A stretch of 64,000 bases of DNA from an uncultured Chloroflexia bacterium (GTDB lineage Bacteria > Chloroflexota > Limnocylindria > Limnocylindrales > CSP1-4), in assembly GCA_963835945.1 (NCBI GenBank), contig CAWIHR010000068.1, positions 2,325-66,324 of the forward strand, written 5' to 3'. Positions 5,336-55,693 of the stretch are shown here, piece by piece; positions within the stretch are counted from its first letter, which is position 1, and each line of letters opens with the position of its first letter. The position numbers and the translations under genes are program-made. The notes beneath the pieces are model-generated. The model had not been told where the DNA came from, searched no databases, and saw only the letters and a program-made list of their open reading frames with translations.

Positions 5336-5965
5336 ATGAGCCTCGTCACCCTGGTTCGGGACATCGCGATCGTGGTCGCCGCGTTCCTCATCGGGGGCAT
5401 TCCCTGGGGCGTGATCGTGGCTCGGGCAGCAGGTGGTCCGGACCCGCGGTCGATCGGGAGCGGCCGCACCGGCGGCGCGAACGTCGCGCGGGCGCTAGGG
5501 CTCAGGCTGGCAGTGCTGACCGGGTTCCTCGACGTCTGCAAGGGCATCGCGGCGGTGCTGATCGCGCGGGCGCTCGGTGCGGGCGCAGCGGTGGAGATCG
5601 TTGCGGCGCTGGCGGCGATCGTCGGGCACAGCCGGTCGCCATTCCTGGGCATGCAGGGCGGGCGTGGTGTGTCCGCCGGGTTCGGCGGCCTGCTCGTCAT
5701 CCAGCCGCTCGTCGCGCTGCTGATCGTCCCGGTCTTCGCGGTCGTGTTCCTCGCCAGCCGCTACTCCTCCCTCGCGTCGCTGACGGGCTCAGCGGCAGCG
5801 GGACTGGCGCTGGTGGCGATCGCCGCTATCGGCAGCCAGCCGCCCGTCTACTACGTCTACGCCGTGGCCGGGCCGCTCCTGATCTGGCTGTTCCACTACG
5901 ACAACATCGCTCGACTCGTGGCCGGCACGGAACGCCGGTTCGGCTCGCCGCCGGCCGCGCACTAG
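5336..5965 (+). CDS. plsY: Glycerol-3-phosphate acyltransferase PlsY
   Basis: Motifs seen are FLIGGIPWGVIVAR, DPRSIGSGRTGGANVARALG, IVGHSRSPFLGMQGGRGVS and a multi-TM profile. The internal ATG at 5336 is chosen over the longer ORF start at 5240. Confidence 0.85.
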   Translation: MSLVTLVRDIAIVVAAFLIGGIPWGVIVARAAGGPDPRSIGSGRTGGANVARALGLRLAVLTGFLDVCKGIAAVLIARALGAGAAVEIVAALAAIVGHSRSPFLGMQGGRGVSAGFGGLLVIQPLVALLIVPVFAVVFLASRYSSLASLTGSAAAGLALVAIAAIGSQPPVYYVYAVAGPLLIWLFHYDNIARLVAGTERRFGSPPAAH

Positions 5966-6035
5966 CGCGACAGCCGGATCGAAGCGGCGCCGGCCGCCGG
6001 TGCAGCGGCGTGCCCGCCGGTGCAGAATCGCGACC

Positions 6036-7760
6036 ATGCGAAGACTGTTGGGGACCCCCGCTTCGAGCGGGGTCGCACGGGGACCCTGGGCTCGCGTCGA
6101 GGCGCCGCGCGAGCCGGAGACGCGCGAGATCCTTCCCGCGCAGGCCACGGCGGAGCGCGCCCTGCTGGGCGCGGCGGCGGAGCGTGCGGCCGCCGAGCTC
6201 GAGGCGATCGGGGAGCAGGTCGCCGCGGAGGGGCACCCGGAGGAGGGGGCCATCTTCGACGCCCAGGCGCAGATGGCGCGGGATCCCGCGCTCGCCTCGC
6301 TGGCGGAGCAGGCCATCGAGGAGCGACACCTCGACGCCGTCGGGGCGGTCCTCCAGGCGGGACGTGAGCTGGCCGAGCAGCTGCGTGGGCTCGGTGACGA
6401 ACTGCTCGCGGCCCGGGCGGCCGACGTGGCCGACGTCGCTCTGCGGATCGCCCGCCGAGCCGCTGGCGTGCCGGACCCCGGCCTGCCGCGCCTGGACGTG
6501 CCGGCCATCGTGGTCGCCGAAGACCTGCCGCCGTCCGTGACCGCTACCCTTCGCCGGGATCGTCTCCTGGGGTTCGCTCTGGAGTCCGGCTCAGCCACCG
6601 CGCACGCCGCGATTTTGGCGCGTGCCTACGGGATTCCGGCCGTTGTTGGGGTGCAGGGGCTCCTGTCCGCGCTGGCTCCCGGCGACCTCGCGATCGATGG
6701 CAGCACGGGCGAGGTCTTCATCGAGCCCGACGCCGCGGCCAGCGCCGAGCTCGAGCGGCGCGCCGAGCAGTCGCAACGCGCGGACGCGCAGGCGCGCAGT
6801 GAGGCGTCGCTGCCGGCGATGACCCGCGACGGGGTCGAGATCACGCTGCTGGCCAATATCGGGACTCCCGACGAGGCGTCCCGCGCCGTGGCGCTCGGAG
6901 CCCGGGGCGTGGGCTTATTCCGGACGGAGTTCCTCTTCATGGAGCGCGCGAGCGAGCCGACGGAGGACGAACAGGCGGCGGCGTACCGGGCCGCTGTCGA
7001 GGCCTTCTCGCCGTACCCGGTGACCATCCGACTGCTCGACGTCGGCGGGGACAAGCCCATCCCGTACCTGCCCATGGCTCCGGAGGCGAACCCGTTCCTC
7101 GGCGTGCGCGCCCTCCGGCTGGCGGCCACACGACCCGACATCTTCCTAGCCCAGCTGCGCGCGACGATGCGGGCCGCCGTGGCGGGGCCCGTGAACGTCA
7201 TGGCGCCGATGGTCGCGGATGCCGGCGACGCTGCCACGCTGCTGTCCCTCGCGGCGCAGGCCCGCGCCGAGCTTGAGAGGCGGGGCGAAGCGTTCGCTCC
7301 CGTCGGGCTCGGTGTAATGCTCGAAATCCCCGGGGCGATCCTCGTCGGCGACAGCTACTTCGGGCGCCTCTCGTTCGCCAGCCTGGGCACGAACGACCTG
7401 CTGCAGTACACGCTCGCCGTCGACAGGGGGAACCCGGACCTCGCCCGGTACCAGGACTCCCTCCACCCCGCGCTGCTGCGCCTCGTGCGCGAGGCCGTCG
7501 AGCGGGCCGACCGCGCCGGGATCGAGCTGTCCGTCTGCGGCGAGATGGCGGGCGACCCCGCGGCCGCGCTGGCGCTGGTGGGTATGGGGATCCGCAAGCT
7601 CAGCATGGCAGCGAGCAGCCTGGCCGCCGTCCGGCGCGCCATCCGCGGTGCGGACGAGGCGCGGGTGCGCGAGGAGGCGCGCGCCGCGCTCGAGGACCTG
7701 TCGGCGGCCGCGGTCCGCGCCCGGTTTGGCGCGCTGGTCGGTGGACGAGACGGCGCCTAA
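6036..7760 (+). CDS. ptsI: Phosphoenolpyruvate-protein phosphotransferase (PTS Enzyme I)
   Basis: Motifs seen are GTPASSGVARG, the phospho-His region GSATAHAAILARAYGIPAVVG, GLFRTEFLFM, and SLGTNDLLQYTLAVDRGN with CGEMAGDP. Confidence 0.9.
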   Translation: MRRLLGTPASSGVARGPWARVEAPREPETREILPAQATAERALLGAAAERAAAELEAIGEQVAAEGHPEEGAIFDAQAQMARDPALASLAEQAIEERHLDAVGAVLQAGRELAEQLRGLGDELLAARAADVADVALRIARRAAGVPDPGLPRLDVPAIVVAEDLPPSVTATLRRDRLLGFALESGSATAHAAILARAYGIPAVVGVQGLLSALAPGDLAIDGSTGEVFIEPDAAASAELERRAEQSQRADAQARSEASLPAMTRDGVEITLLANIGTPDEASRAVALGARGVGLFRTEFLFMERASEPTEDEQAAAYRAAVEAFSPYPVTIRLLDVGGDKPIPYLPMAPEANPFLGVRALRLAATRPDIFLAQLRATMRAAVAGPVNVMAPMVADAGDAATLLSLAAQARAELERRGEAFAPVGLGVMLEIPGAILVGDSYFGRLSFASLGTNDLLQYTLAVDRGNPDLARYQDSLHPALLRLVREAVERADRAGIELSVCGEMAGDPAAALALVGMGIRKLSMAASSLAAVRRAIRGADEARVREEARAALEDLSAAAVRARFGALVGGRDGA

Positions 7761-10977: not shown

Positions 10978-12252
10978 ATGTCCGTCGCCCAACTGCCGGC
11001 CCACGATGTCGCCGACCTTGCGCTCGCCGCCGAGGGGCGACGTCGCATCGAGTGGGCCGAGCGAGAGATGCCGGTGCTGCGCCTGATCCGCGAGCGGTTC
11101 GAGCAAGAACGCCCCTTGGCGGGGGTGCGGATCGCGGCCTGCCTGCACGTGACGGCTGAGACCGCGAACCTGGTGCGGACGCTCCAGGCGGGCGGTGCGG
11201 CGATCGCGCTTGCCGCTTCAAACCCGCTCTCTACCAAGGACGACGTGGCGGCGGCCCTCGTAGCGGTATACGGCATCCCCACCTACGCCAGGCATGGCGT
11301 GGACCGCGACGGCTACTACGCGCACCTCAACGCGATCGCCGACACGCATCCGTTAGTTACCATGGACGACGGGTGCGACTTGGTGACGCTGCTGCACACG
11401 GAGCGCCCCGGGCAGGTCCCCGAGGTAATGGCGGGCACCGAGGAGACCACGACCGGGGTCGTCCGGCTCCGCGCGATGGCCGCCGACGGAGCGCTGGGCT
11501 ACCCCGTCGTGGCGGTCAACGAGGCCAAGACGAAGCACCTCTTCGACAACCGGTACGGGACCGGCCAGTCGGCCGTCGACGGGATTCTCCGCGCCACAAA
11601 CATCCTCCTGGCCGGTCGCCACGTGGTGGTGGCCGGGTACGGCTGGGTCGGACGGGGGATCGCTTCCCGGTTCCGGGGAATGGGCGCGCAGGTCGCGGTC
11701 ACGGAGGTCGACCCGATCCCGGCGATCGAGGCGCTCATGGACGGCTTCGTGGTGCTGCCGATGGCCGACGCGGCGCCCTGGGGAGAAGTCTTCATCACGG
11801 CCACGGGCGACCTCAACGTCATTCGCGAGGAGCACTTCCGCGTGATGCGCGACGGCGCGATCCTCGCCAACGCCGGACACTTCGACGCGGAGATCGAGCT
11901 CCCGGCCCTCCGCCGCCTGGCCGACGGCCGCGTCCGCGAAGTGCGCCCCGACGTCGACGAGTACGACCTCGGCGACCGGCGCCTCAGGCTGGTGGTCGAG
12001 GGCCGGCTGGTCAACCTCGGAGCTGCCGAGGGCCACCCCGCCGCTGTCATGGACATGAGCTTCGCGAACCAGGCGCTCGGTGTGGAGTACGTGGTGGCAC
12101 ACCACGGCGAGCTCGATCGCGCGGTCTACGCCGTGCCCGACGCAATCGACCGGGAGGTGGCCCGCCTGAAGCTCGAGGCGCTGGGGATCGGGATCGACGA
12201 GCTGACGCCCGAGCAGCGGGCGTACCTCTCGTCCTGGACGAGCGGCACGTAG
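10978..12252 (+). CDS. ahcY: Adenosylhomocysteinase
   Basis: Motifs seen are [53 protein letters not shown], the NAD fold [13 protein letters not shown], and GHFDAEI. Confidence 0.95.
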
Positions 12253-44692: not shown

Positions 44693-44938
44693 GAGGTGTC
44701 CGCGTGATCGATCTGTCCGACAAGAGCGCCATCGTCACCGGCGGTGCGCGCGGAATCGGGCGCGCCATCGTGCTACGCCTGGCTCGCCAGGGCGCGGACA
44801 TCGCGTTCCTCGACCGCGGGCCCGTCGAGAGCGCGGAGGCGACCCGCGGCGACGTGGAGGCGCTCGGCCGGCGCTGCTTCTGGGTCGAGGGCGATGTGAG
44901 TGACCCGGAGGCGGCCCCCGCGCTCGTCGCGCGCACGG
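44693..44938 (+). repeat. Direct repeat copy 1 (246 bp: 11 bp upstream plus the first 78 codons of fabG)
   Basis: It is identical to 48207-48452 at a constant offset of 3514 nt, except for two substitutions (ctcgaccgcggg versus ctggaccgaggg). Confidence 0.9.
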
Positions 44939-45453
44939 TCGAGACGTTCGGCCGGCTCGACATCCTGGTCAACAACGCCGGCGTGACTCGCGACGACCTG
45001 ATCATGCGGATGAGCCTGGACGAGTGGCGCACCGTGCTCGAAGTGAACCTCTTCGGCGCCTTCTACGCGACGAAGGCAGTCCTGCGGCCCATGCTCCGGG
45101 CGCGCTCCGGGCGCATCGTCAACATCTCGAGCGTGTCGGGTCAAGCCGGCCAGGCGGGTCAGGCGAACTACTCGTCGTCGAAGGCCGGGCTGATCGGCCT
45201 GACGAAGGCCACCGCGCGCGAGGTCGGCAGTCGCGGCATCACCTGCAACGCGATCGCCCCCGGCTTCGTCACCACCGACCTGACGCGCGACCTGCCTGAG
45301 GCGCTCCAGTCGCAGTTGCTGGCGCAGACCCCGCTGGGCCGCTTCGGAGCGCCGGACGAGATCGCCGCCGCGGTGGCGTTTCTCTGCTCCGACGAGGCCG
45401 CGTTCATCACCGGACAGGTGCTGGCGGTGGACGGCGGCCTGGTGATGATGTAG
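44704..45453 (+). CDS. fabG: 3-oxoacyl-ACP reductase
   Basis: VTGGARGIGRAI, NNAGV, and the SDR catalytic region SSVSGQAGQAGQANYSSSKAG are present. Confidence 0.9.
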   Translation: MIDLSDKSAIVTGGARGIGRAIVLRLARQGADIAFLDRGPVESAEATRGDVEALGRRCFWVEGDVSDPEAAPALVARTVETFGRLDILVNNAGVTRDDLIMRMSLDEWRTVLEVNLFGAFYATKAVLRPMLRARSGRIVNISSVSGQAGQAGQANYSSSKAGLIGLTKATAREVGSRGITCNAIAPGFVTTDLTRDLPEALQSQLLAQTPLGRFGAPDEIAAAVAFLCSDEAAFITGQVLAVDGGLVMM

Positions 45454-45594: not shown

Positions 45595-46698
45595 TGTCAG
45601 CCACCAGCAGCAGGAGGACCCTCGGTGATCAAGTCTAGGCGTCAGCGCGCCCATCCCCACGGCACGAGCGCCCACAACCGGTTGATCCGCCGGCGGGCCG
45701 CTGCGATCGTTCGCGAAGCCGCGCCCGCCCTGTCCCGCGACGCCCGGCGGCGCCTCAGCATGGTCGACTGGCACCGGGCCCACGGTGGGAACGTGAGCCT
45801 GACCGCCCGTCACTACGGCGTCGGTCGCTCGACGGTGTATCGCTGGCTCGGGCGGTACGACCGGTTCCATCTCGAGACCATCGAGGACCGCGGCTCCGCG
45901 CTACGCCGCCGGCGTCGGCCGACCCCGACGCTCGCTTTAGCTGGAGGCCGTCCGCTCGATCCGCGAGCGCTATCCGCGCTCATAGTAAGGACAAGCTCCG
46001 GATCCTCCTCCGACGGGCCGGGATGGCGCTCTCGACCTCGATGGTGGGGCGGATCCTGGGCCGGCTGCTGCGGGCCGGCGATCTCCACGAGCCCCACCGA
46101 CGTCGGATGAGCGTCCGGCAGCGTCGCTGGCAGCGACCGTATGCGATCCGCAAGCCGGCCGGCTGGGCAGTCCAGTCGCCGGGCGACCTCGTCCAGCTCG
46201 ACACGCTCGACATCCGGCCCCTGCCCGGCCAGATCTGGAAGCAGTTCACCGCTCGCGATGTCGTGTCCCGCTCCTGACACCGTCGAGCTCGGGCGGCGGG
46301 CGACCGCCGCGGCCGCGGCGGCGGTCCTCGATCGCCTTGCGGAGCGGATGCCCCTCCGCGTCCGGGCCATCAGCATCGAGGACGGCTCCGAGTTCACGGC
46401 CGAGTTCGAGACCGCCTGTGCCGAGCGGGGGATCCGGCTGTTCGTCCTCCCGCCCCGCTCGCCCAAGCTAGAACGGGGCAGTCGAGCGGGCCACCCGGAC
46501 CCACACCGAGGAGTTCCACGATGTCACCGCTGCTGAGCCCGAGCTCGCCGCCTTCCAGGTCGAGCTGCGAGCCTGGGAGACCGTGTACAACACGATCCGA
46601 CCCCATCAGTCGCTCGGCTATCTCACCCCGGCCGAATACCTCGCCTTCGTCGGCATCGATGTGTATCGGACGTACTGAACGAGTACAGCGGATTGACA
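45595..46698 (+). mobile_element. Decayed IS481-like insertion sequence (about 1.1 kb); ends are tentative
   Basis: It contains a frameshifted HTH plus rve-type integrase gene. TGTCA at 45595 and its complement TGACA at 46694 are the only terminal inverted match I can see. No target-site duplication was recognised. Confidence 0.5.
45625..46678 (+). pseudogene. IS481-family (DDE/rve) transposase with at least three frame breaks
   Basis: The HTH piece is LTARHYGVGRSTVYRWLGRY. SPGDLVQLDTLDIRPLPGQIWKQFTARDVVSR, AISIEDGSEFTAEFETACAERGIRLFVLPPRSPKL and TEEFHDVT..WETVYNTIRPHQSLGYLTPAEY each lie in a different frame. Confidence 0.75.
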
Positions 46699-46721
46699 CG
46701 CTATGAGGCATAGCTCATAGT
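46693..46721 (+). promoter_or_regulatory. Sigma-70-like promoter with a palindromic operator, predicting a leaderless transcript for the XRE-NTase gene
   Basis: TTGACA (46693-98), a 17-nt spacer, then CATAGT (46716-21), then 6 nt, then ATG 46728. The spacer contains CTATGAG-n6-CTCATAG (46701-46720). Confidence 0.45.
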
Positions 46722-46727
46722 TTGGGC

Positions 46728-47705
46728 ATGGTGGACGCCTTGGTACGGCAGGTCGCGGCGCGAAGGCGCGAGTTGCGGATGTCGCAGGCGCAACTTGCTG
46801 CGTTGTCAGGTGTTCCCCAGAGCGAGATCAGCCGCATCGAGCGCGGCCGCACACAGCCCTCCATCGACCGATTGCGCCGGCTCGCGGACGCCCTCGGCGT
46901 GTCGGTGACCCTGGCAGCACGCGAGTCCGGCGTGCTACCGGAGGGAGCCGACGGCCGGCCGACCGGCAACGCGGACGATGCGGAGCACTCAATCCGCCCG
47001 CTACCCTCGGGACCCGAGTGGGACGCGGTCATCGCGGCGGCCGTGCGCCTACAGCGCCTGTTGCCTGACGCGACGCTCGTCGGGGGCACTGCGGCGAGCA
47101 TGCACGCGCGGCACCGCATGAGCCACGACGCGGACCACGTGCTGGGCGACCTGCGAGACCGCTTCGACCGCGTGCGGGCGGATCTGGAGGCTGCGGTGGG
47201 ATGGCAGACAGCCCGGGTCACGCGGCCCGTCCAGATCCTTGGGTCACTCGACGGCATCGAGACCGGCGTCCGGCAACTGCGGCGTAGTGCGCCGCTGGAG
47301 ACGCAGGAGATCGAGACCGACCATGGCACCCTGCGCCTGCCTACCAGGGCGGAGATCCTCCGAGTCAAGGCGTTCTTGGTCGTCGATCGGAACGCGACAC
47401 GTGACTACCTTGACGTCGCGGCACTCTGGGACGGGATGTCCCCGGACGCCGCGCTCGGTGCACTGGCCCCTATGGACGCCCTGTACCCGCAGCCCGGCGA
47501 TCCAGGGGCGGTGCGCCAGCAGCTGATCCGCCAGCTGGCGGATCCGAGGCCGTACGATCTCGACGAGCTCCGCTTGGCCGAGTACAGGTGGCTCGCCGCG
47601 CGATGGACCGACTGGGCGACCGTCGTCGAAGCCTGTGCCGACGCATCAGCGGAAATGCTCCGGGCGATCGCCGACGGCCTGCCGGGCTGGAACGACCTGG
47701 GATGA
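46728..47705 (+). CDS. XRE-family HTH domain fused to an AbiEii/AbiGii-type nucleotidyltransferase domain
   Basis: The N-terminus is LRMSQAQLAALSGVPQSEISRIERGRTQPSIDRLRRLADALGV. The C-terminal part has LVGGTAASMHARHRMSHDADHVL (the pol-beta NTase G-G..S-x-D-x-D) and ILRVKAFLVVDRNATRDYLDVAAL, as in DUF1814/AbiEii. Confidence 0.65.
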   Translation: MVDALVRQVAARRRELRMSQAQLAALSGVPQSEISRIERGRTQPSIDRLRRLADALGVSVTLAARESGVLPEGADGRPTGNADDAEHSIRPLPSGPEWDAVIAAAVRLQRLLPDATLVGGTAASMHARHRMSHDADHVLGDLRDRFDRVRADLEAAVGWQTARVTRPVQILGSLDGIETGVRQLRRSAPLETQEIETDHGTLRLPTRAEILRVKAFLVVDRNATRDYLDVAALWDGMSPDAALGALAPMDALYPQPGDPGAVRQQLIRQLADPRPYDLDELRLAEYRWLAARWTDWATVVEACADASAEMLRAIADGLPGWNDLG

Positions 47706-47968
47706 AGCACCGGCACCTCGTCCACGAGGACTTCACCCTGGCCGTCATCGATGACATCCTCGATCGTGGCACGCTCGTGGATTGGACCCCGTTGCTACGC
47801 GAGATTCGGCGCGACCCGAATGGGCCAGTGGCGGGACGAGTTGCGGACGTCATCGAGCACCACGCGATGTATGGCACCACGCGTGCTTGGGCCCGTTTCC
47901 TCCACGCCGAGCGATCAAGGGGCGCCGCCCCGCCCGACGGCGTCGGTGAGCCCAGATCAGGGGCCTGA
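47702..47968 (+). CDS. Hypothetical 88-aa protein translationally coupled to the XRE-NTase gene
   Basis: The ATG overlaps the upstream TGA (ATGA). It reads MKHRHLVHEDFTLAVIDDILDRGTLVDWTPLLREIRRDPNGPVAGRVADVIEHHAMYG. No motif was recognised. Confidence 0.45.
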   Translation: MKHRHLVHEDFTLAVIDDILDRGTLVDWTPLLREIRRDPNGPVAGRVADVIEHHAMYGTTRAWARFLHAERSRGAAPPDGVGEPRSGA

Positions 47969-48206
47969 CCGCGGCGCACTCGTCCGGGCACACGCGAATG
48001 GGGACGCTTCGACCCGGCACTCCGCCCGTGAGCAGGGGAGGGTCACATTCCGGTTCCTCGCCAGGTCGCGGCCATTATGTTTCGTCTGTCGCTATGTGCG
48101 CCGATCACAATCGGCGTGACTTCGCGCGGCCTGATTCGCCACAATTCCGTGCAACGCGCCCATCGCGCCGCGCAAGCCACGCCCGACCCCGCTCAGCGCC
48201 CCCAGC

Positions 48207-48452
48207 GAGGTGTCCGCGTGATCGATCTGTCCGACAAGAGCGCCATCGTCACCGGCGGTGCGCGCGGAATCGGGCGCGCCATCGTGCTACGCCTGGCTCG
48301 CCAGGGCGCGGACATCGCGTTCCTGGACCGAGGGCCCGTCGAGAGCGCGGAGGCGACCCGCGGCGACGTGGAGGCGCTCGGCCGGCGCTGCTTCTGGGTC
48401 GAGGGCGATGTGAGTGACCCGGAGGCGGCCCCCGCGCTCGTCGCGCGCACGG
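48207..48452 (+). repeat. Direct repeat copy 2 (246 bp)
   Basis: See copy 1. Similarity ends abruptly after gcgctcgtcgcgcgcacgg. Confidence 0.9.
48218..48452 (+). pseudogene. Truncated duplicate of the fabG 5' end (78 codons)
   Basis: VIDLSDKSAIVTGGARGIGRAIVLRLARQGADIAFLDRGPVESAEATRGDVEALGRRCFWVEGDVSDPEAAPALVART is followed by unrelated sequence. Confidence 0.85.
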
Positions 48453-48728
48453 CAAGAGACGGCCCCACGCAATACGGGACCAGGGGCCGCCGGGACACGG
48501 GTAGCCGTGGTGCTGGACGGGCGCGCTACCATTCCCGCTGAGCGCGGTCGGCGCGTAGGCCGGGTGATCGGGGACGTATCGGGCGATCGACGCAGCACGA
48601 AGACGAAGGAGTGGGTCGCGGGAAGGTCGTATCCGTCCCGCGTGATGTAGCGTCGAGGCGCCAAGGTGTGGCAGACTGCGGATCACAGGCGCGGGTATCC
48701 GAGCTTGCCGGCCGTCCGCGAGCCGGGG

Positions 48729-49529
48729 ATGGACCGCCGCAGGGGGCGGGCCGTCGAGGGCCTACCCGGAGGACGCGTGCAGAACAGCGTCTGGGATGAG
48801 CGTGAGCTTGTCCGACGATGCAAGGAAGGCTCCGAGGCGGCCTACGCTGAGCTGGTCCGCCAGCACGGTGTCCGTCTCGTCACGCTCGCGTACCGCCTAA
48901 CGGGCAGCCGCGAGACGGCCGAGGACGTGGTCCAGGAGACCTTCCTCGCCGCCTTCCGTGCCATGGAGCGGTTCGAGCCGAAGCCGGCGCTCGCTCCTTG
49001 GCTGACGACCATCGCCGTGCGGTTCGCCTCGAAAGCGACCACGCGCCAGCCCCGTCCGACCTCCCTCGACGCGCTGATGGGGTCAGACCCCACGGATGGC
49101 GGCCCGGCCTTCCAAGTGGTATCGACCGCGCCCGACCCCCATGCCAGCGCTGAGGCCGCCGAGATCCGCGCGGAGGTCCAGCGCGCGCTCGACACACTGC
49201 CGTTCAAGCAGCGGTCGGCGGTCGTGCTGCGGCTCGTCATCGGGATGGACTACGCCGAAGCTGCCCGCGCCATGGACGTGCCGCTCAACACATACAAGAG
49301 CCTGCTCCTGCGCGGGACTCGGCAGCTGCGCGAGACCCTAGGGCCGCGTGTTGTCGGGCCCCAGGCGGGGGACGGCGTCCCGGCCGAGGACGCGGCTATC
49401 ACCGTGCCGCTCGAGCCCACGTCGAGCGCGGGTCGCGACGACGGCAGGAATTCCGCCCTCATTGCTCGTCCACCGCTCCGAGCCCCTATCGACCGCGAGC
49501 CGGTCGAGATGGCGGCCGAGTCGGAGTAG
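48729..49529 (+). CDS. ECF-type RNA polymerase sigma factor (second copy in the window)
   Basis: Region 2 reads AYAELVRQHGVRLVTLAYRLTGSRETAEDVVQETFLAAF. Region 4 reads QRSAVVLRLVIGMDYAEAARAMDVPLNTYKSLLLRGTRQLR. The start could be 48666, 48729 or 48777. Confidence 0.85.
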   Translation: MDRRRGRAVEGLPGGRVQNSVWDERELVRRCKEGSEAAYAELVRQHGVRLVTLAYRLTGSRETAEDVVQETFLAAFRAMERFEPKPALAPWLTTIAVRFASKATTRQPRPTSLDALMGSDPTDGGPAFQVVSTAPDPHASAEAAEIRAEVQRALDTLPFKQRSAVVLRLVIGMDYAEAARAMDVPLNTYKSLLLRGTRQLRETLGPRVVGPQAGDGVPAEDAAITVPLEPTSSAGRDDGRNSALIARPPLRAPIDREPVEMAAESE

Positions 49530-49599: not shown

Positions 49600-50469
49600 A
49601 TGGTCTCGATCTTCTCCTCGCATCGCGCGCTCGAGGCTCTGGCGGCGCTGGAACAGCGCGGCGAAGCCGGCCTCCGCTTGGCCGAGGTTGCCAAGGCCGT
49701 GGGCGCGCCCGTCTCGAGCACGCAGGTCGCCCTCGGCGTGTTGATGGAGGACGGCCTGGTTTCGACGGGGTCCACGCGTCCTCCCATGTATCGGATCGCG
49801 CGCGACGAGCGCGACTCTACGGAGAAGATCCTGGATGTCGCCATGCGGCTTGCCGACGGGGCTCGACTGCTGCACGCCGCGCTGCGCGTTAATCGTGCGG
49901 TCGAGTTCGCTGCCGACGACGCAGCGGGGTTGCTGCTCGTCATCCGATGGGACGCTGAGCCGCCCGACGAGGTTCTCCTCGACCGAATGCTGCGACGCAT
50001 CGATCTCGAGATCGCCCGCTTCGGCCACGACGAAGCGCGGGAGCGGCTGCGCGCCGGGGCGTCGCTGCGCGAGCGCGCCAGCCACGGTCGGGTCATTGTC
50101 GGCTCGGTGGACCGCTCATTCCCCCACCCGTTCCGCCATGGGTCTCCCGACGCGCAGCCGCTGGGCCGTCTCAATCCGGCGGTTGCTCGTCCGTCGCGCA
50201 GCGCCCTCGCTCGCATCGCTCGCCGGTTCGGGCTGTCCGAGGTTCGAGTCTTTGGCTCGGCCGTGCATGCGGACTTCCGGTCTGACTCGGACATGGACGT
50301 CATGGTCCGGCGGAAGCCCGGCATCCGGCGGACGCTCGAAGAAGAGCTCTCGCTGCGTCGCGCCCTCGAGGACCTGCTGGACCGGGACGTGGACGTGGTG
50401 GACGCACGCGTGCTCCGTCGGCCCATCCGGGAGAAGGTCGAGTCCGACGGGGTGATCCTCTATGGATGA
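49600..50469 (+). CDS. Winged-HTH N-terminal region fused to a minimal nucleotidyltransferase (MNT) domain; putative antitoxin/regulator
   Basis: The N-terminus is LRLAEVAKAVGAPVSSTQVALGVLMEDGLVS. The C-terminus is RVFGSAVHADFRSDSDMDVMV (G-S..S-D-x-D) with RRPIREKVESDGVILYG. At 289 aa it is longer than the roughly 100-140 aa typical of MNT proteins. Confidence 0.7.
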   Translation: MVSIFSSHRALEALAALEQRGEAGLRLAEVAKAVGAPVSSTQVALGVLMEDGLVSTGSTRPPMYRIARDERDSTEKILDVAMRLADGARLLHAALRVNRAVEFAADDAAGLLLVIRWDAEPPDEVLLDRMLRRIDLEIARFGHDEARERLRAGASLRERASHGRVIVGSVDRSFPHPFRHGSPDAQPLGRLNPAVARPSRSALARIARRFGLSEVRVFGSAVHADFRSDSDMDVMVRRKPGIRRTLEEELSLRRALEDLLDRDVDVVDARVLRRPIREKVESDGVILYG

Positions 50470-50890
50470 CCGGGACCGACAACACCTCCGCAACCTCATC
50501 GCGCATGCGCAGGCGGCGATCGGATACACGACCGCGCACGGTCGCGGCTGGTGGAAGAACGCGGAGACGCTCGATGCCGTCCTGATGCGGATCTCGCAGG
50601 TCAGCGAGGCCGCGACCAGGACCTCGCCCGAAGCGTTGGCGGAAGTGCCCGGCGTCGTCTGGCGAGACGTCAAGGGCGTGCGTGCCAGGATCGTGCACGA
50701 TTACCAGTCCATCGACGTGCTCGTGATCCGCGGCGTAGTTGCCCGTCAGCTCCCGCGCCTGGTCGCACGCGTGGAGCGGGCGCTTGCCGCGGACGAGAGG
50801 CGCAGACTGCCGCCCGACACGCTTTCCCTAGATGCCCCGCATACCGCTGCTCAGCCCCGGCGACGACCGGGTGGGCAGGCCTCGGCGTGA
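50462..50890 (+). CDS. HEPN-domain (DUF86-type) protein; putative toxin partner of the MNT
   Basis: The ATG overlaps the MNT gene by 8 nt. The R-x4-H motif lies in GVRARIVHDYQSIDVLVI. Confidence 0.7.
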   Translation: MDDRDRQHLRNLIAHAQAAIGYTTAHGRGWWKNAETLDAVLMRISQVSEAATRTSPEALAEVPGVVWRDVKGVRARIVHDYQSIDVLVIRGVVARQLPRLVARVERALAADERRRLPPDTLSLDAPHTAAQPRRRPGGQASA

Positions 50891-50975
50891 ACGCCGTGGG
50901 GTCACCCCGCGGCCGACCCATGACGAAGGTACTCCAAGCCGGGGCTGCAACCTTTCACGGGCATCGTGGCTTTCT

Positions 50976-51764
50976 ATGAATGTGACTACCTGCGCGGCTG
51001 CCCAGGACCTGATCGACGCCTTCGTGACCGGAGGCCTCCCGGACCCGGCTGCCACGTCGCTCGCCGACCACGTGCGGACCTGTCCTGCCTGCGCCGCGCG
51101 CCTCGGCAGCATTACTCGCCTCGTGGAGCTCCTAGCCGCACTTCCCGACGTGCCACCTACTCCTGACTTCGACGAGCGTGTCATGCTGGCCTCGCTCGCG
51201 GACCGGCGTCGGCGCCACGAGCATCGCAACTGGTTGGCCGATCTGTGGACGCAGATCCTGCGCGGCACGGTGCGCACGACGGGCACGTTCATGGCCACGG
51301 TCGCCATCGTTGCGGTCCTCGCCGTCGGTGGCGTGTGGGCGGCCTCGAACCTCGTGCCGGGCTTCGCCCAGCAGGTGGGCCTCGCGCCGCAGCCGACGCC
51401 GAGGCACGTGGCGGTCACGCTCGCGACGCCGTCTCCCACCGCGACTCCGGCGGCGAGGGCCACGCCCGCGCCGCTCGTCGTCGCGGCGACCACGAGACCC
51501 ACACCGGCGCCCACGCCTTCTCCCACCCAGCGGCCCACGCCCGCCGCGACGACGAGCCCGACCCCTTCGCCATCGCCTAGCCCGACCCCGGCACCCACTA
51601 GCACCGTGGCTGCTCAAACTGTCACACCACCGCCGTCCGCCTCGGCCACGCCGACCCCGACCGCGTCACCATCGCCCACACGCAAGCCGCGCCGCTGCCC
51701 GCCGGGCACCGCGTGCTACTCACCTACCCCGACGCCGGGTGCGGCGTCTCCCACATCGCCGTAA
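50976..51764 (+). CDS. zf-HC2 anti-sigma factor with a TM helix and a Pro/Thr-rich extracytoplasmic tail
   Basis: The H-x3-C-x2-C motif is in ADHVRTCPACAARL. The TM helix is GTFMATVAIVAVLAVGGVWAA. A PT-rich tail of about 130 aa follows (TPAPTPSPTQRPTPAATTSPTPSPSPSPTPAPT). Confidence 0.75.
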   Translation: MNVTTCAAAQDLIDAFVTGGLPDPAATSLADHVRTCPACAARLGSITRLVELLAALPDVPPTPDFDERVMLASLADRRRRHEHRNWLADLWTQILRGTVRTTGTFMATVAIVAVLAVGGVWAASNLVPGFAQQVGLAPQPTPRHVAVTLATPSPTATPAARATPAPLVVAATTRPTPAPTPSPTQRPTPAATTSPTPSPSPSPTPAPTSTVAAQTVTPPPSASATPTPTASPSPTRKPRRCPPGTACYSPTPTPGAASPTSP

Positions 51765-51922
51765 CAGCGAGGCGGGCAGTGCCCGTCTCGTCGTTCCGGG
51801 CCTTGCGCAAGGCGTTGTTGTACGTGTTACCGGGGTCCACGCAAAGGAGGGTGGAAGGAAGCCCCGGACCCGGCCCTGCGGGGTCGGACCATCAGCCCAA
51901 TCTCTCTAGGAGGTCTACGGAC

Positions 51923-54900
51923 TTGGGAATCACTAAGAGGGCGATCAGCGTCGGCGTCACTGCCACGATGCTCGCCTCACTCATTGGCGCAGCATTCGCT
52001 GGCGGCGCGGCCGCCGCTACCATGTCTGTCACGACCGAGCTGACGACCCAACCGATCAGCTCGATCAACGCACTTCCGACCGGAACCGCACTGGTCTCCT
52101 TCGTGCCGGTGCAACAGGTCGGCCCCAGCACGACCATCGATGTCAACTTCGGCGGCGGCCTCGGGACCATCGATCCCACGCCGGCCGATTGGCACCTGCA
52201 GCAAGGCACCACCGACGTCGCCTTCACGCTTGCCCCAACGGTCAGCACCAACGGGCAGGTCATTGGCTTCGTGGTGCCCGCTGGCACGACGCTTAATCCG
52301 GCGATCGCCGTGAGCATCGTCGCACAGACCCTCAATGAGGTCGACTACGGCACGAAGGCCGGCACCTTCGACATCACCGTGACCACGCCGCTCGGAGATA
52401 CCGGGTTCGCGACGTACACGGTCACGCCAGGGGCGGCAGCACTAGGCACCGTCTCGGCCAGCCCGACGTCCGTTGCGGCGGACGGCGTTAGCACCTCGAC
52501 CATCACCGCGACGGTCACCGATGCGTCCGCCAACCCGGTCGCAGGCGTGACCGTCAACTTCGCAAAGACCGGATCCGCTGTCCTCTCGGCGGCTTCCGCG
52601 GTGACCAACGCCAGCGGCGTTGCCACAGTCACCGTGACGGATGCCACCGTCGAGTCCTCAACGATCACGCCGACGGCAACGGGCGTTACGTTTACGCCCC
52701 TCACCGTGGCGGTCTCCTTCACCGCTGTGTCGGCCTCGGTGACCTGCACGCCCTCGGGCGGCCCCATCGGGAACGGCGCTCCAGTGAGTTGCGTGTACAC
52801 GCCCGGCAATCCGCTGACCACAGTAAGCTGGACCTCGACGAACTTCACGCCGACAACCAGCAGCACCGATAGCCAGACGTTCACCGCGGCCAACATGAGC
52901 TCGAGCACGGTCACCGGGACCATCACGGCCACCGGTTCGGGCGGGCTCGTCGCGACCTTCACCTATAGCATTAGCCCAACTGCCGTGGCTGCCCCGGGTG
53001 CGCCTACGACGGCTGGCACGATCACCCTGTCCAATACGGTCTCCATCCCGCAGGGGAGCAAGACCCCCGTCACCCTCGGCACGTACACCTTCACCGAAGG
53101 CACGGCGGGTGACTGGCAGGCTAACGACTGGGTGCAGGTGTGCTTCGCCGACAATGCGGGCGCAACCAACACCATGACCCTCGCAGGCGGAGTCGTCACC
53201 GGACCCGGTGCGCTCGACTTCACCGCGGTGGGCGCGGGCCTGTCGATTAGCAACGGCCCGCCCTGCTTCAAGGTGACGCTCGGCGGGAGCAGCACAGGCG
53301 TGGGTGCCTACCTGGAGTCGTTCCAGGTCAGCGGCCTGACCCTGACGGGCGTGGGCCCGACCGGGCTTGTCGCTGCACCCGGCACCATCGTGGGACCTGG
53401 CAGCACCTCTTACGCCACCTACACGTCCTCCATGCATGCGCTGACCCCGGCCGGTGTCTACACCGCGTACTTCGGCGGCGTTAGCGCCACCGCGAGCGGC
53501 ACGCTCGCCGATGCGTACAACTCGTCGAGCCCCGGGGTCGAGCCGGTCGTCGTCAACATGACGGCGGGCAGCAAGGCGTTCCAAACCCCCGGCACGCTGG
53601 TCGTGGGTGGCGCGAAGGCCGAGTCCGCTCCCATCGTCGCAGTCAGCACCGTCGTCGGCTCCCTCTGCGGCACCTTCACGCTTCTGGGCAACCAGGAGTG
53701 CCTGACCGTCGACTTCGCCAATAGCCACAGCGTGGGCGACCCACTCAGCGAGAGCATCTCCGGCCTGTCCGGCACTGCGCCCTCCCCGGGCTCGGTGAGT
53801 GAAGGGCTCGCACTGGCTCTGTATCCCTCTGGCGCAGCTGTCCCGCAGCTCCGCATCGGTGTCACCGATCAGAAGCCGGACAGCGTCAGCCTCTCTGAGC
53901 AGGCCGGCTCCAATGGCGTGATCGCAGTGGGCACGGTCATCACGCTGACCGCGCCCGCGGGGGTGCTCTTCACGAGCGCACCCATCCTTGACCCGGCCTC
54001 CTTTGAGTGCCCGGCGGTGGTCTATGCTGGGACCACCTATGAGGCCTTCCAACTGAACTCCAACATCGCGACGCTGTCGCTCGATCGGTCCAGCGCGACC
54101 TTCACCGTCGAGTACGCCGATCCGGCCTTCACCGTGAGCGGCGCGTCGAGCAACTGCGTCACCAGTCTCGTGTTCGACATGCAGTACGACGTGGCGTCGT
54201 CGAGCGTCGCGGGCGGCGCGATCAATCTGGCCGTGACGGCCGGCGCGATCCCCGTCGTCCCGGCGACCATCGAGAATGCCAGCGTCGGCGCGGGGATCGT
54301 CGTGAACGCCACGGCCCCCACCATCTCCATCGGACAGAATGACCAGGCCCTCGGCACGGTCAACATCGTCGAGAACGCGGCTGGGGCCCTCAGCGCGTCC
54401 GCCAATACGGACACGTTCTTCGTGTGCCTGACCAGCGGCGAGTACTTCACCCGACCCCCGTGGGCGGTCGTGACGGCCGGTAACCTGTTGCTCGGCCTGA
54501 ACGGCGTCCTGACGGGTGCTGGCGTGACCCAGTCGGCCGGCGTGCCGGTCAACATCTCGGGGCCTGGCCTCATCGTCAGCGCACCCAGCTACGCTAACCA
54601 GGCCTGCTATGGCTGGACCGTCTACAGCGCGAGCACCACGGCCTCGACCATCGCGATCGAGGGCGTGAGCGCATCGGGCACACCGACCGCCACGGCGCAC
54701 GTTAACGTGCCGACGACCGAACCGGTCGGGCTCGGTGGACTTGTCGCGGGAACGGCGCTGACGCCCGGACCCACGTACATGGCCATCGGCACCGCGTTCA
54801 GCCTGTCTTCTACCGCCGGCAACCTGATCAACATCGCGACCGTCGCCGTCCGGGCGTTTTCGTCCGGGATCACGGTCACCGCGCTCAGCCAGCCCTACAT

Positions 54901-55693
54901 CGCCCCAGGGACCGTGGCGGGCCCGGCCGGCAACATCAGCTTCGCTGAAACCGGCCCAAACCTCCTCGTTGCCAACGAGGAGATCGAGTGCAACCTGGTT
55001 CCGAACTTCCTCCAGGAGCAATTGCCGGAGCAGTTCGCGTGGGCGAACTCCAACGTGCTGCCGATCGTGAGCACCGGCGCCACGACCGGTCTGCAGGCGC
55101 ACCTGGTCAACACCGGCTCCACCTTCTTCACGCTCATGGTCGACCAGGCAGCAACTAACGGCTTGGGCGTGATCACGGTCAGCAACATCGAGTACAACGT
55201 GGTGTCCGACGCCCCGACGGGCAACGTGCTCATCGAGTGCTTCAACGGCACCGCCGATACCAGCGGCACCCTCGACCAGATCACCGCAACGCTCGGGGCA
55301 GACTTTGATCAGTACGTCTCGAACGCGATCATCGGCACCGCCCCGGTCTTGGGGAAGGTCGTGCTGTCGGCTGACTCGTCGCTCAGCATGAGCGGCCCGT
55401 TCAGCGTCACCACGAAGATCGTCAAGAAGGGCGGGTCGATCACCTTCCGCGTCCGGAGCAATCCGACGCTGGCCGGCGATAAGCTCGGCGTGTGGATCGC
55501 GGTCAAGAGCTCCAGCGGCAGTTGGAGCAGCTACACGCCTCACACCAGCGTGACCACCGACGTGACCGGGACGGCGTACTACACGTACACCTTCACGAAG
55601 ACGGAGTGGCTCGCTTTCCGGTTCCACTTCGGTGGTAGTGCGAAGCTCGCCGCGGCGAACTCGTACCCGTCGGTGTTCGGCCGGGTCGTGTAA
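51923..55693 (+). CDS. Giant secreted surface (S-layer-like) protein, about 1257 aa, with a bacterial Ig-like domain
   Basis: AGGAGG lies 9 nt before TTG 51923. The signal peptide is GITKRAISVGVTATMLASLIGAAFAGGAAAA. A Big_1-like segment reads ASPTSVAADGVSTSTITATVTDASANPVAGVTVNF..NASGVATVTVTD (about 52440-52700). Composition is Thr/Ser/Ala/Gly-rich beta-type, with no Cys-poor enzymatic motifs. A strong hairpin follows the stop. Confidence 0.75.
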   Translation: MGITKRAISVGVTATMLASLIGAAFAGGAAAATMSVTTELTTQPISSINALPTGTALVSFVPVQQVGPSTTIDVNFGGGLGTIDPTPADWHLQQGTTDVAFTLAPTVSTNGQVIGFVVPAGTTLNPAIAVSIVAQTLNEVDYGTKAGTFDITVTTPLGDTGFATYTVTPGAAALGTVSASPTSVAADGVSTSTITATVTDASANPVAGVTVNFAKTGSAVLSAASAVTNASGVATVTVTDATVESSTITPTATGVTFTPLTVAVSFTAVSASVTCTPSGGPIGNGAPVSCVYTPGNPLTTVSWTSTNFTPTTSSTDSQTFTAANMSSSTVTGTITATGSGGLVATFTYSISPTAVAAPGAPTTAGTITLSNTVSIPQGSKTPVTLGTYTFTEGTAGDWQANDWVQVCFADNAGATNTMTLAGGVVTGPGALDFTAVGAGLSISNGPPCFKVTLGGSSTGVGAYLESFQVSGLTLTGVGPTGLVAAPGTIVGPGSTSYATYTSSMHALTPAGVYTAYFGGVSATASGTLADAYNSSSPGVEPVVVNMTAGSKAFQTPGTLVVGGAKAESAPIVAVSTVVGSLCGTFTLLGNQECLTVDFANSHSVGDPLSESISGLSGTAPSPGSVSEGLALALYPSGAAVPQLRIGVTDQKPDSVSLSEQAGSNGVIAVGTVITLTAPAGVLFTSAPILDPASFECPAVVYAGTTYEAFQLNSNIATLSLDRSSATFTVEYADPAFTVSGASSNCVTSLVFDMQYDVASSSVAGGAINLAVTAGAIPVVPATIENASVGAGIVVNATAPTISIGQNDQALGTVNIVENAAGALSASANTDTFFVCLTSGEYFTRPPWAVVTAGNLLLGLNGVLTGAGVTQSAGVPVNISGPGLIVSAPSYANQACYGWTVYSASTTASTIAIEGVSASGTPTATAHVNVPTTEPVGLGGLVAGTALTPGPTYMAIGTAFSLSSTAGNLINIATVAVRAFSSGITVTALSQPYIAPGTVAGPAGNISFAETGPNLLVANEEIECNLVPNFLQEQLPEQFAWANSNVLPIVSTGATTGLQAHLVNTGSTFFTLMVDQAATNGLGVITVSNIEYNVVSDAPTGNVLIECFNGTADTSGTLDQITATLGADFDQYVSNAIIGTAPVLGKVVLSADSSLSMSGPFSVTTKIVKKGGSITFRVRSNPTLAGDKLGVWIAVKSSSGSWSSYTPHTSVTTDVTGTAYYTYTFTKTEWLAFRFHFGGSAKLAAANSYPSVFGRVV

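Follow-up and report, generated by a model that had tools for sequence, protein, structure and literature searches.

Background

Nucleotidyltransferase (NTase) toxins of the MenT/AbiEii type are now studied through a handful of toxin-antitoxin (TA) systems, in which the antitoxin is either a large AbiEi-type protein or the rare MenA1. AbiEi-AbiEii (Streptococcus agalactiae, Lactococcus), MenA3-MenT3 and MenA4-MenT4 are bicistronic systems that are autoregulated via inverted repeats in their promoters. MenA1 (Rv0078B) of Mycobacterium tuberculosis is a 68-amino acid (aa) antitoxin of MenT1 (Rv0078A) that does not bind DNA (PMC10435456), and the MenAT1 pair has no helix-turn-helix (HTH) domain and showed no autoregulation (PMC11375011). 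The phospho-acceptor residues of MenT1, MenT3 and AbiEii (T39, S78 and T65, respectively) are found at the same position, and their antitoxin-induced modification neutralises the three toxins (PMC10435456; PMC11375011; bioRxiv 10.64898/2026.01.19.700257). Here, a two-gene module related to these systems is described from an uncultured Chloroflexia bacterium, in a stretch of 64,000 nucleotides (nt) of contig CAWIHR010000068.1 (GenBank assembly GCA_963835945.1, positions 2,325 to 66,324 of the forward strand), which as a whole is called the window. The first gene encodes an XRE-type HTH fused to an NTase domain and the second a protein of 88 aa; in a preliminary description made from the sequence, the module had been proposed as a candidate single-chain TA or abortive-infection variant. 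With moderate confidence, it is read here as an unusually organised, bicistronic NTase TA system of the MenAT/AbiE superfamily.

The two genes and the small partner family

Both open reading frames (ORFs) were present as first described, coupled by an ATGA at 47702-47705 in which the ATG of the 88-aa ORF overlaps the TGA of the fusion gene (Table 1); by this overlap the 88-aa ORF is predicted to be translationally coupled to the fusion gene. An alternative TTG start for the 325-aa fusion ORF was found at 46722. A search of 5.8 billion proteins with the fusion gave 3416 matches, the first 19 of which (P0001-P0019) were full-length fusion homologues, 58-90% identical, from metagenome-assembled genomes (MAGs) of Chloroflexota / Limnocylindrales. 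Judged by these matches, the closest relatives of the module are MAGs of Chloroflexota / Candidatus Limnocylindrales. The first search also produced 11 close homologues of the 88-aa ORF, several of which share contigs with fusion homologues and overlap them by 4 nt; the same 4-nt overlap was kept in the related loci L001 and L002. With full-length homologues of the fusion, and with 11 close and thousands of distant homologues of the small ORF, both genes are judged to be real. Their annotation labels were 'XRE-family transcriptional regulator' for the fusion and 'hypothetical' for the small partner.

The 88-aa protein consists of a conserved core (aa 1-70) and a tail of about 18 unconserved residues, and its family is recognised by an invariant N-terminal H-R-H-L followed by T-L-A-A-I-D-D, R-G and D-W. 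The small proteins had no match in Pfam, NCBIfam, PADLOC or PDB sequences, and no HTH or other domain was detected in them with Pfam, NCBIfam and PADLOC, in agreement with the preliminary description, in which no motif had been recognised in the 88-aa ORF. For a survey of co-occurrence, which that description had suggested, one genome per species was scanned; at least 519 genomes carried a relative of the NTase, the best 80 loci were kept, and their six-frame ORFs were searched with a hidden Markov model (HMM) of the small protein. A homologue of the small protein adjoined the NTase gene on the same strand at all 80 loci, from many phyla (E 1e-6 to 1e-35). The small gene was located upstream, abutting or overlapping the start of the NTase gene, at 70 loci and immediately downstream at 9, while a single locus had an in-frame fusion. 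A profile search with the small family returned 3111 clusters at 90% identity, the named ones being 'hypothetical protein' throughout and without a Pfam domain, and HMMER, run exhaustively over 1.84 billion representatives, returned 564 clusters at 50% identity. The first wider link to the family had come from two proteins of 513/514 aa (P0024 and P0058), the tail of which is homologous to the small ORF of the window. Going by its co-occurrence with the NTase genes, the small ORF is a conserved partner of this NTase subfamily.

Table 1. Positions of the module, its parts and neighbouring features in the window
Feature	Positions	Strand	Remarks
HTH-linker-NTase fusion gene	46728-47705 (stop codon included)	+	325 aa; ATG start; stop codon 47703-47705
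XRE/Cro-C1-type HTH domain, aa 10-61	46755-46910	+	Pfam HTH_3, E 3.2e-17
Flexible linker, aa 62-89	46911-46994	+	pLDDT <50; length and sequence vary among homologues
DUF1814/AbiEii/MenT-type NTase domain, predicted toxin, aa 96-325	47013-47702	+	Assigned by homology, motifs and fold
Catalytic motifs I/II, G119-G120 ... R130-M-S132-H-D134-A-D136	47082-47135	+	Invariant in 31-sequence alignment
Motif III, K214 ... R221, and motif IV, R225-D226-Y-L-D229	47367-47414	+	Invariant in 31-sequence alignment
Small partner gene, predicted antitoxin	47702-47968	+	88-aa ORF
Sigma-70-type promoter, TTGACA-17 nt-CATAGT	46693-46721	+	10/12 matches
Inverted repeat CTATGAG-N6-CTCATAG, presumed XRE HTH operator	46701-46720		Between -35 and -10 boxes, overlapping -10
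Intact fabG (fabG1)	44704-45453	+	5' end is left repeat copy
Left copy of 246-nt direct repeat	44693-44938	+	5' end of intact fabG
Insertion sequence (transposase) remnant, between fabG and module	45625-46678	+	HTH_28 45625-46110 and rve_3 46508-46675, in different frames
Right copy of 246-nt direct repeat	48207-48452	+	Shortened recent duplicate of fabG 5' end
ECF sigma gene	48666-49529		Downstream of module
HepT/MntA pair	49600-50890	+	1.6 kb downstream of module

The nucleotidyltransferase domain

In DUF1814 proteins, motifs I and II read hG[G/S]-x(9-15)-DhD with an Arg inside motif II, motif III is a Lys in a hydrophobic context followed by an Arg, and motif IV is +DxxD (Dy et al., PMC3985639). 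In the fusion, motif III is K214-AFLVVD-R221, with the same K-to-R spacing of 7 as in AbiEii (K173/R180). Motifs III and IV were present at 83 of 83 loci, and the DxD motif was intact at about 79 of these. At L028, L031, L072 and L043, otherwise intact stand-alone NTases with the small partner kept, the second catalytic Asp was changed to Asn (DAN or DEN for DAD); these loci may hold attenuated toxins. S132 sits on the loop that leads from the post-GG helix to the DxD strand, two positions ahead of the first catalytic Asp. The residue was Ser in each of the 8 sequences checked by eye and in 75 of 76 regex matches, and is, by its correspondence to the acceptors of MenT1, MenT3 and AbiEii, a candidate auto-phosphorylation site.

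Scans of the fusion with NCBIfam and Pfam found HTH families only, and the E-value of the PADLOC AbiEii model (0.21) was too weak to be used alone. Because the Pfam AbiEii profile PF08843 misses the window protein, the assignment to the AbiEii type had to rest on motifs, relatives and a structure model. Thousands of stand-alone proteins of about 236 aa are about 60% identical to aa 96-325, and two relatives that are 56-58% identical to the NTase domain, P0119 (32.5 bits) and P0035 (23.4 bits), pass the PF08843 gathering cutoff of 22.5, with a third, P0036, just under it; one of these proteins is named 'AbiEii/AbiGii toxin family protein' by NCBI. An AlphaFold (AF2) model of the fusion, built from a 31-sequence alignment, had a mean pLDDT (predicted local distance difference test) of 85.7 and a predicted fold composed of a pol-beta NTase N-lobe and a helical C-lobe, as in the solved MenT and JHP933 structures. 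Its best match in a Foldseek search of the PDB was MenT1 (8an5_B; E 4e-4, TM-target 0.63, probability 1.00), and the other top matches were MenT1 (8an4), JHP933 (4o8s/4ok0) and TglT/MenT3 (6j7p), at a probability of 1.00 each. On motifs, relatives and modelled fold, the C-terminal domain is a DUF1814/AbiEii/MenT-type NTase. The AbiEii-type core of the preliminary description was upheld in that the motif strings quoted there are real and invariant and the predicted structure falls within the pol-beta NTase/AbiEii fold (best PDB matches MenT1, JHP933 and MenT3), though not by the PF08843 search that it had proposed.

The HTH domain, promoter and architectural variants

The Cro/C1-type HTH that had been noted on the same polypeptide as the NTase core was recovered with HTH_3 at 62.7 bits (cutoff 23) and with HTH_31 at 49.8 bits (cutoff 27; E 4.5e-13), and in a PDB profile search with the 31-sequence alignment it matched SinR, HigA and controller (C) proteins. 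The domain was modelled with a pLDDT of 85-96, and no sign of its packing onto the NTase domain was seen in the AlphaFold model. The promoter in front of the fusion was the only sigma-70-like site in 46400-48300, with 0.1 expected in shuffles. The palindrome of the preliminary description proved to lie inside this conserved promoter, where it is presumed to be the operator; its arms, 7 nt and perfect in the window, extend to 8 nt (CTATGAGC/GCTCATAG) in L001, and the inverted repeat is conserved in L001 and L002 and partly in L011. TTGAC and CATA(G/C)T blocks were kept in L001, L002 and L011 and the flanks were not, so the block of promoter and palindrome forms a conserved island in otherwise unalignable upstream DNA of four loci with proteins 58-90% identical. 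The start codon follows the -10 box after 7-8 nt in all four; as the ATG of the window stands only 7 nt past it, the mRNA of the module is probably leaderless. The arrangement of promoter and palindrome fits autorepression by the fused HTH.

Among the loci and proteins recovered, N-terminal DNA-binding domains were fused to the NTase only where the small partner was downstream or itself fused, which suggests that the DNA-binding domain contributes regulation and not neutralisation. XRE-NTase fusions were found in the window, in P0001-P0019 and at L011 and L026, an HTH_17-NTase fusion in P0020, and triple fusions of AbiEi, NTase and small domain in P0024, P0058 and L066, the small domain being in frame at the C-terminus of the NTase. 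In the canonical pairs, neither protein had a recognisable DNA-binding domain. By these comparisons the HTH is a lineage-specific addition to the NTase, and the HTH fusion with toxin-first order is a variant known, so far, mainly from Chloroflexota. In P0321 the small protein bears an XRE-like HTH, P0371 is an NTase with a degenerate GG/DxD motif and a C-terminal small domain, and in P0292, P0300 and P0338 the small domain stands ahead of a truncated NTase. At some loci, long stop-to-stop extensions in front of the small gene look, by eye, more like non-coding Arg-rich open frames than HTH domains.

At L007-L010, all that was left of the NTase was a frameshifted C-terminal remnant (profile positions 134-233), with the HTH and the catalytic lobe gone and the downstream small ORF intact. 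The four contigs, from different samples, share this NTase remnant and encode identical small proteins (L007 920-1475 and L008 2422-2977, for example). An AF2 model of the triple fusion P0024 gave pLDDT values of 88-98 for the small domain and NTase C-lobe and poor values for the AbiEi part and the catalytic N-lobe, and no significant match was obtained with this model in a Foldseek search.

Comparison with known systems

Functionally, the module seems most like MenA1/MenT1, by analogy. Both combine a DUF1814-type NTase with a very small (<100 aa), co-oriented partner without a DNA-binding domain, and the NTase domain in the window is structurally matched best by MenT1. A Ser or Thr stands two residues before the first Asp in each (T39/D41 in MenT1, S132/D134 in the window) and the Lys-to-Asp spacing is the same (K137/D152 and K214/D229, respectively). 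The MenA1 gene lies upstream of its toxin gene, as does the small gene at the majority of the surveyed loci, and the canonical pairs of the family share with MenAT1 the lack of a recognisable DNA-binding domain, MenAT1 having shown no autoregulation (PMC11375011). Identity of the NTases in the structural alignment is, however, only 18-20%. The small proteins have no detectable similarity to MenA1, so the module should not be filed as MenAT1. MenA1 homologues are also rare (21; PMC10435456), against more than 3000 clusters at 90% identity for the small family, and MenAT1 lacks the toxin-first order and the toxin-borne XRE HTH of the window.

AbiE, MenA3-MenT3 and MenA4-MenT4 belong to the same NTase superfamily and share all four DUF1814 motifs. 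The window module resembles them in its two-gene layout and predicted autoregulation, and neutralisation by antitoxin-induced auto-phosphorylation is, by analogy, likely to be shared as well. In contrast to AbiE, no COG5340/AbiEi gene is present in the module, and the toxin has the DNA-binding domain, an XRE HTH, where in AbiE the antitoxin has a winged HTH. Likewise unlike AbiE, the partner in the family is a protein of about 75 aa that sequence searches did not relate to AbiEi, although the rare triple fusions do have an AbiEi domain before the NTase, besides the small domain. Immediately upstream of the fusion, in place of an AbiEi gene, lies the remnant of an insertion sequence (IS), and no AbiEi domain was detected in the fusion with Pfam; in the absence of an AbiEi gene, the module should not be filed as an AbiE system either. 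The comparison with the classic AbiEi/AbiEii pair in the preliminary description has accordingly been replaced, since the nearest relatives are a huge set of pairs of a small protein and an NTase of about 236 aa without an AbiEi gene.

Such a pair is found on pKF715A of Pseudomonas putida KF715 (WP_096427036.1 and WP_096427035.1), where the genes overlap, the NTase is 54% identical to that of the window and the small protein has the MxHRHL...AAIDD...RG...DW core. These direct homologues differ from the window module in having the small gene upstream and no HTH on either protein. They are named 'AbiEii/AbiGii toxin family protein' (NTase) and 'hypothetical protein' (75-aa small protein) by the Prokaryotic Genome Annotation Pipeline (PGAP), and no functional study of the pair was found in the literature. 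The pair (L091, NZ_AP015030.1 2278-3202) is carried by a conjugative IncP megaplasmid of a cultured host and is directly followed by an ISL3 transposase gene.

HepT-MntA (HEPN/MNT) is likewise an operon of two overlapping genes in which a pol-beta-fold NTase carries an N-terminal HTH. There, the HEPN RNase is the toxin and the minimal NTase its antitoxin. The NTase of the window differs in being of the DUF1814 class, with an extra C-terminal helical lobe and motifs III and IV, and its partner is not a HEPN protein.

Genomic context

The module is not a recent insertion, as relatives have it at the same place, downstream of fabH-fabG and ahead of an extracytoplasmic function (ECF) sigma gene, with PemK or PIN genes. 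The direct repeats that had been thought to bracket an insertion do exist, the copies being 99% identical to each other, but the repeat is a copy of fabG and no insertion is indicated. A target-site duplication or att site was considered for the 246-nt repeat and rejected, as the left copy belongs to an intact fabG and the right one is a 5' fragment, and as relatives have the module without the repeat. Identity of the right copy is 98.4% to fabG1 of the same genome and about 70% to the fabG2 paralogue at that position in relatives, which have there a full-length, divergent fabG2 with 76-77% identity to fabG1 (compared in L001 at 5825-6574 and 11280-12029). Being near-identical to fabG1 and far from fabG2, the right copy suggests gene conversion or local re-duplication in this genome, followed by deletion.

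The dead IS beside the module was found as described: the frame of HTH_28 is not that of rve_3, and no Pfam match was obtained for the intervening ORFs, so the transposase is frameshifted. L001 and L002 had no transposase-family gene call at this position. Downstream, an MntA-like protein of 289 aa (49600-50469; HTH_IclR and Polbeta/NTP_transf_2) overlaps a 142-aa HepT-like HEPN protein by 8 nt. The defence-island context suggested earlier is better described as TA-rich (HepT/MntA here, PemK and PIN in relatives), the surroundings not being demonstrably those of phage defence. The NTase family is present on a few plasmids, and the NTase domain had no match in the phage collection. A 1326-aa ORF (51713-55693, + strand), rich in Thr/Ser/Ala/Val repeats, looks like a large surface protein under ECF control; between it and the ECF sigma gene comes a possible anti-sigma-like ORF (50832-51764).

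Proposed mechanism and alternative explanations

The sequence analysis itself establishes the domain composition, the conserved motifs and fold class, the small partner beside the NTase at every surveyed locus, natural in-frame fusions, and conservation of promoter and palindrome. By analogy with the systems above, we infer toxicity, the identity of the toxin, a tRNA target, phosphorylation and operator binding for the module. The promoter would drive the mRNA of both genes. Its first product, joining the HTH through the flexible linker to the NTase, would arrest translation by adding nucleotides to the 3' ends of tRNA, on the model of MenT1, MenT3, MenT4 and AbiEii, and binding of the HTH to the inverted repeat over the -10 box would repress the operon. 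The small partner, as the ATGA-coupled second product, would neutralise the NTase, most likely by direct binding, and may in this way force the invariant Ser132 towards the catalytic centre, leading to auto-phosphorylation of the toxin as with MenA1 and AbiEi. More speculatively, a small protein that bridged two NTase chains (compare the MenT1:MenA1:MenT1 trimer) could dimerise the HTHs and thereby serve as co-repressor. A wider proposal is more tentative, and we hold it to be rather doubtful: that the HRHL small protein represents an unrecognised, widespread class of minimal antitoxin inducing auto-phosphorylation of a conserved Ser, and that the Chloroflexota toxin, by carrying an operator-binding HTH, is its own repressor, with the small antitoxin co-repressing by bridging two toxin chains.

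Several results weigh against the TA reading. No tested member of the NTase subfamily or of the small family was found in the literature, so that toxicity and neutralisation rest on analogy. PF08843 had no match to the fusion protein in Pfam even at E<=1, the Foldseek E-values are modest (4e-4), and the PDB sequence-profile search with the 31-sequence alignment gave no MenT or AbiEii match and HTH proteins only, which points to a divergent NTase subfamily that is recognised from its fold and motifs. Searched with a profile of 30 members, the small family showed no similarity to MenA1 among PDB chain sequences, returning two unrelated chains at E<=10 and not the MenAT1 complex 8an5. In the model of the triple fusion P0024, the tail is confident (pLDDT 93-98) and the N-lobe poor, and the interface between NTase and small domain is not informed by it. 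Vertical inheritance at one chromosomal site in the lineage is, moreover, less typical of addiction or defence modules. In favour of a TA system, the pair is kept as a unit across unrelated genomes with the genes overlapping or coupled (window, L001, L002, pKF715A), Rosetta-stone fusions join its parts (P0024, P0058 and L066 as AbiEi-NTase-small, P0292 as small-NTase and P0371 as NTase-small), the surroundings are rich in TA genes, and some plasmids, the conjugative pKF715A among them, carry the pair.

The DNA-binding domain of most TA systems is on the antitoxin and not on the toxin, and the fused HTH consequently fits a reversed polarity equally well, a further point against the TA reading as given here: the HTH-NTase would be antitoxin and regulator, like MntA, nucleotidylating a toxic small protein, for example at its nearly invariant Thr12. 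The NTase gene is first in this clade, which is the usual position of an antitoxin gene, the neighbouring MntA-like gene combines an HTH with a pol-beta NTase of an antitoxin family, and the small protein has a strikingly invariant HRHL N-terminus. Reversed polarity nevertheless appears very unlikely. Fold and motifs of the NTase are those of DUF1814 toxins (the proven MenT1, MenT3 and AbiEii, and JHP933) and not of minimal MNT antitoxins, and its Ser two residues before the catalytic Asp is at the phospho-acceptor position of the three proven toxins. The small gene comes first, in the usual antitoxin position, at 70 of the 80 loci, no HEPN or other toxin signature was found in the small protein by library scans, and in P0321 it is the small protein that bears the HTH, the usual antitoxin architecture. 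Retention of an intact small ORF beside a destroyed NTase at L007-L010 would be tolerable for an antitoxin and lethal for a toxin, and the D-to-N changes at the second catalytic Asp of a few loci are expected of attenuated toxins. The comparative data favour the architecture raised as one option in the preliminary description, with the small ORF as neutralising partner and the fusion as an autoregulated NTase.

We also regard as unlikely that the pair is no TA system at all but a self-regulated enzyme with an adaptor in housekeeping or stress, such as an RNA or small-molecule NTase whose specificity or activity is set by a small subunit, with no part in addiction or defence. The stable synteny from fabG to the ECF sigma gene in related Chloroflexota would suit such a role, as would the fact that sequences are very highly conserved from phylum to phylum (55-60%), which is unusual in fast-evolving defence genes, and the lack of matches in phage genomes; MenAT1 likewise showed no clear physiological role beyond toxicity (PMC10435456). 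On the other hand, the patchy spread over more than 10 phyla at about 55-60% identity points to horizontal transfer, the pair is found on plasmids, beside IS elements and clustered with other TA genes, the NTase gene decays while its partner is retained, and the D-to-N changes at some loci are as for a costly toxin. The single-chain TA system first proposed, in which the fused HTH would neutralise the NTase in cis and the 88-aa ORF would be an accessory or effector, can draw on the fused single-chain TA systems that exist elsewhere, on the presence of HTH and NTase on one polypeptide, and on the AbiEi triple fusions, by which whole systems are seen to fuse. It is highly improbable given that the linker of 28 residues is disordered and unconserved, that no packing of the HTH on the NTase was modelled, and that HTH (XRE, HTH_17) or AbiEi fusions were seen, in the loci recovered, only with a downstream or fused partner, suggesting regulation rather than neutralisation. 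Most family members lack an HTH, yet the small partner is always there, at 80 of 80 loci whether or not an HTH is fused; the module is therefore two-component, with the HTH added in one lineage, and the single-chain description has been given up.

Conclusions

The module is in keeping with established TA biology, its distinctive traits being a toxin-borne HTH and a minimal conserved partner, and both of its halves have been missed by annotation pipelines. The most useful result is the recognised partner family with its natural domain rearrangements. What is new is a large unannotated family that always accompanies one NTase subfamily, across many phyla and on plasmids. The occurrence of the HTH on the toxin or on the small protein, the triple fusions, and either gene order provide a natural series for studying how regulation and neutralisation are divided between the proteins. 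If the small protein is an antitoxin, it would be a compact tool for learning how a protein of about 70 residues turns an NTase from tRNA to self-modification.

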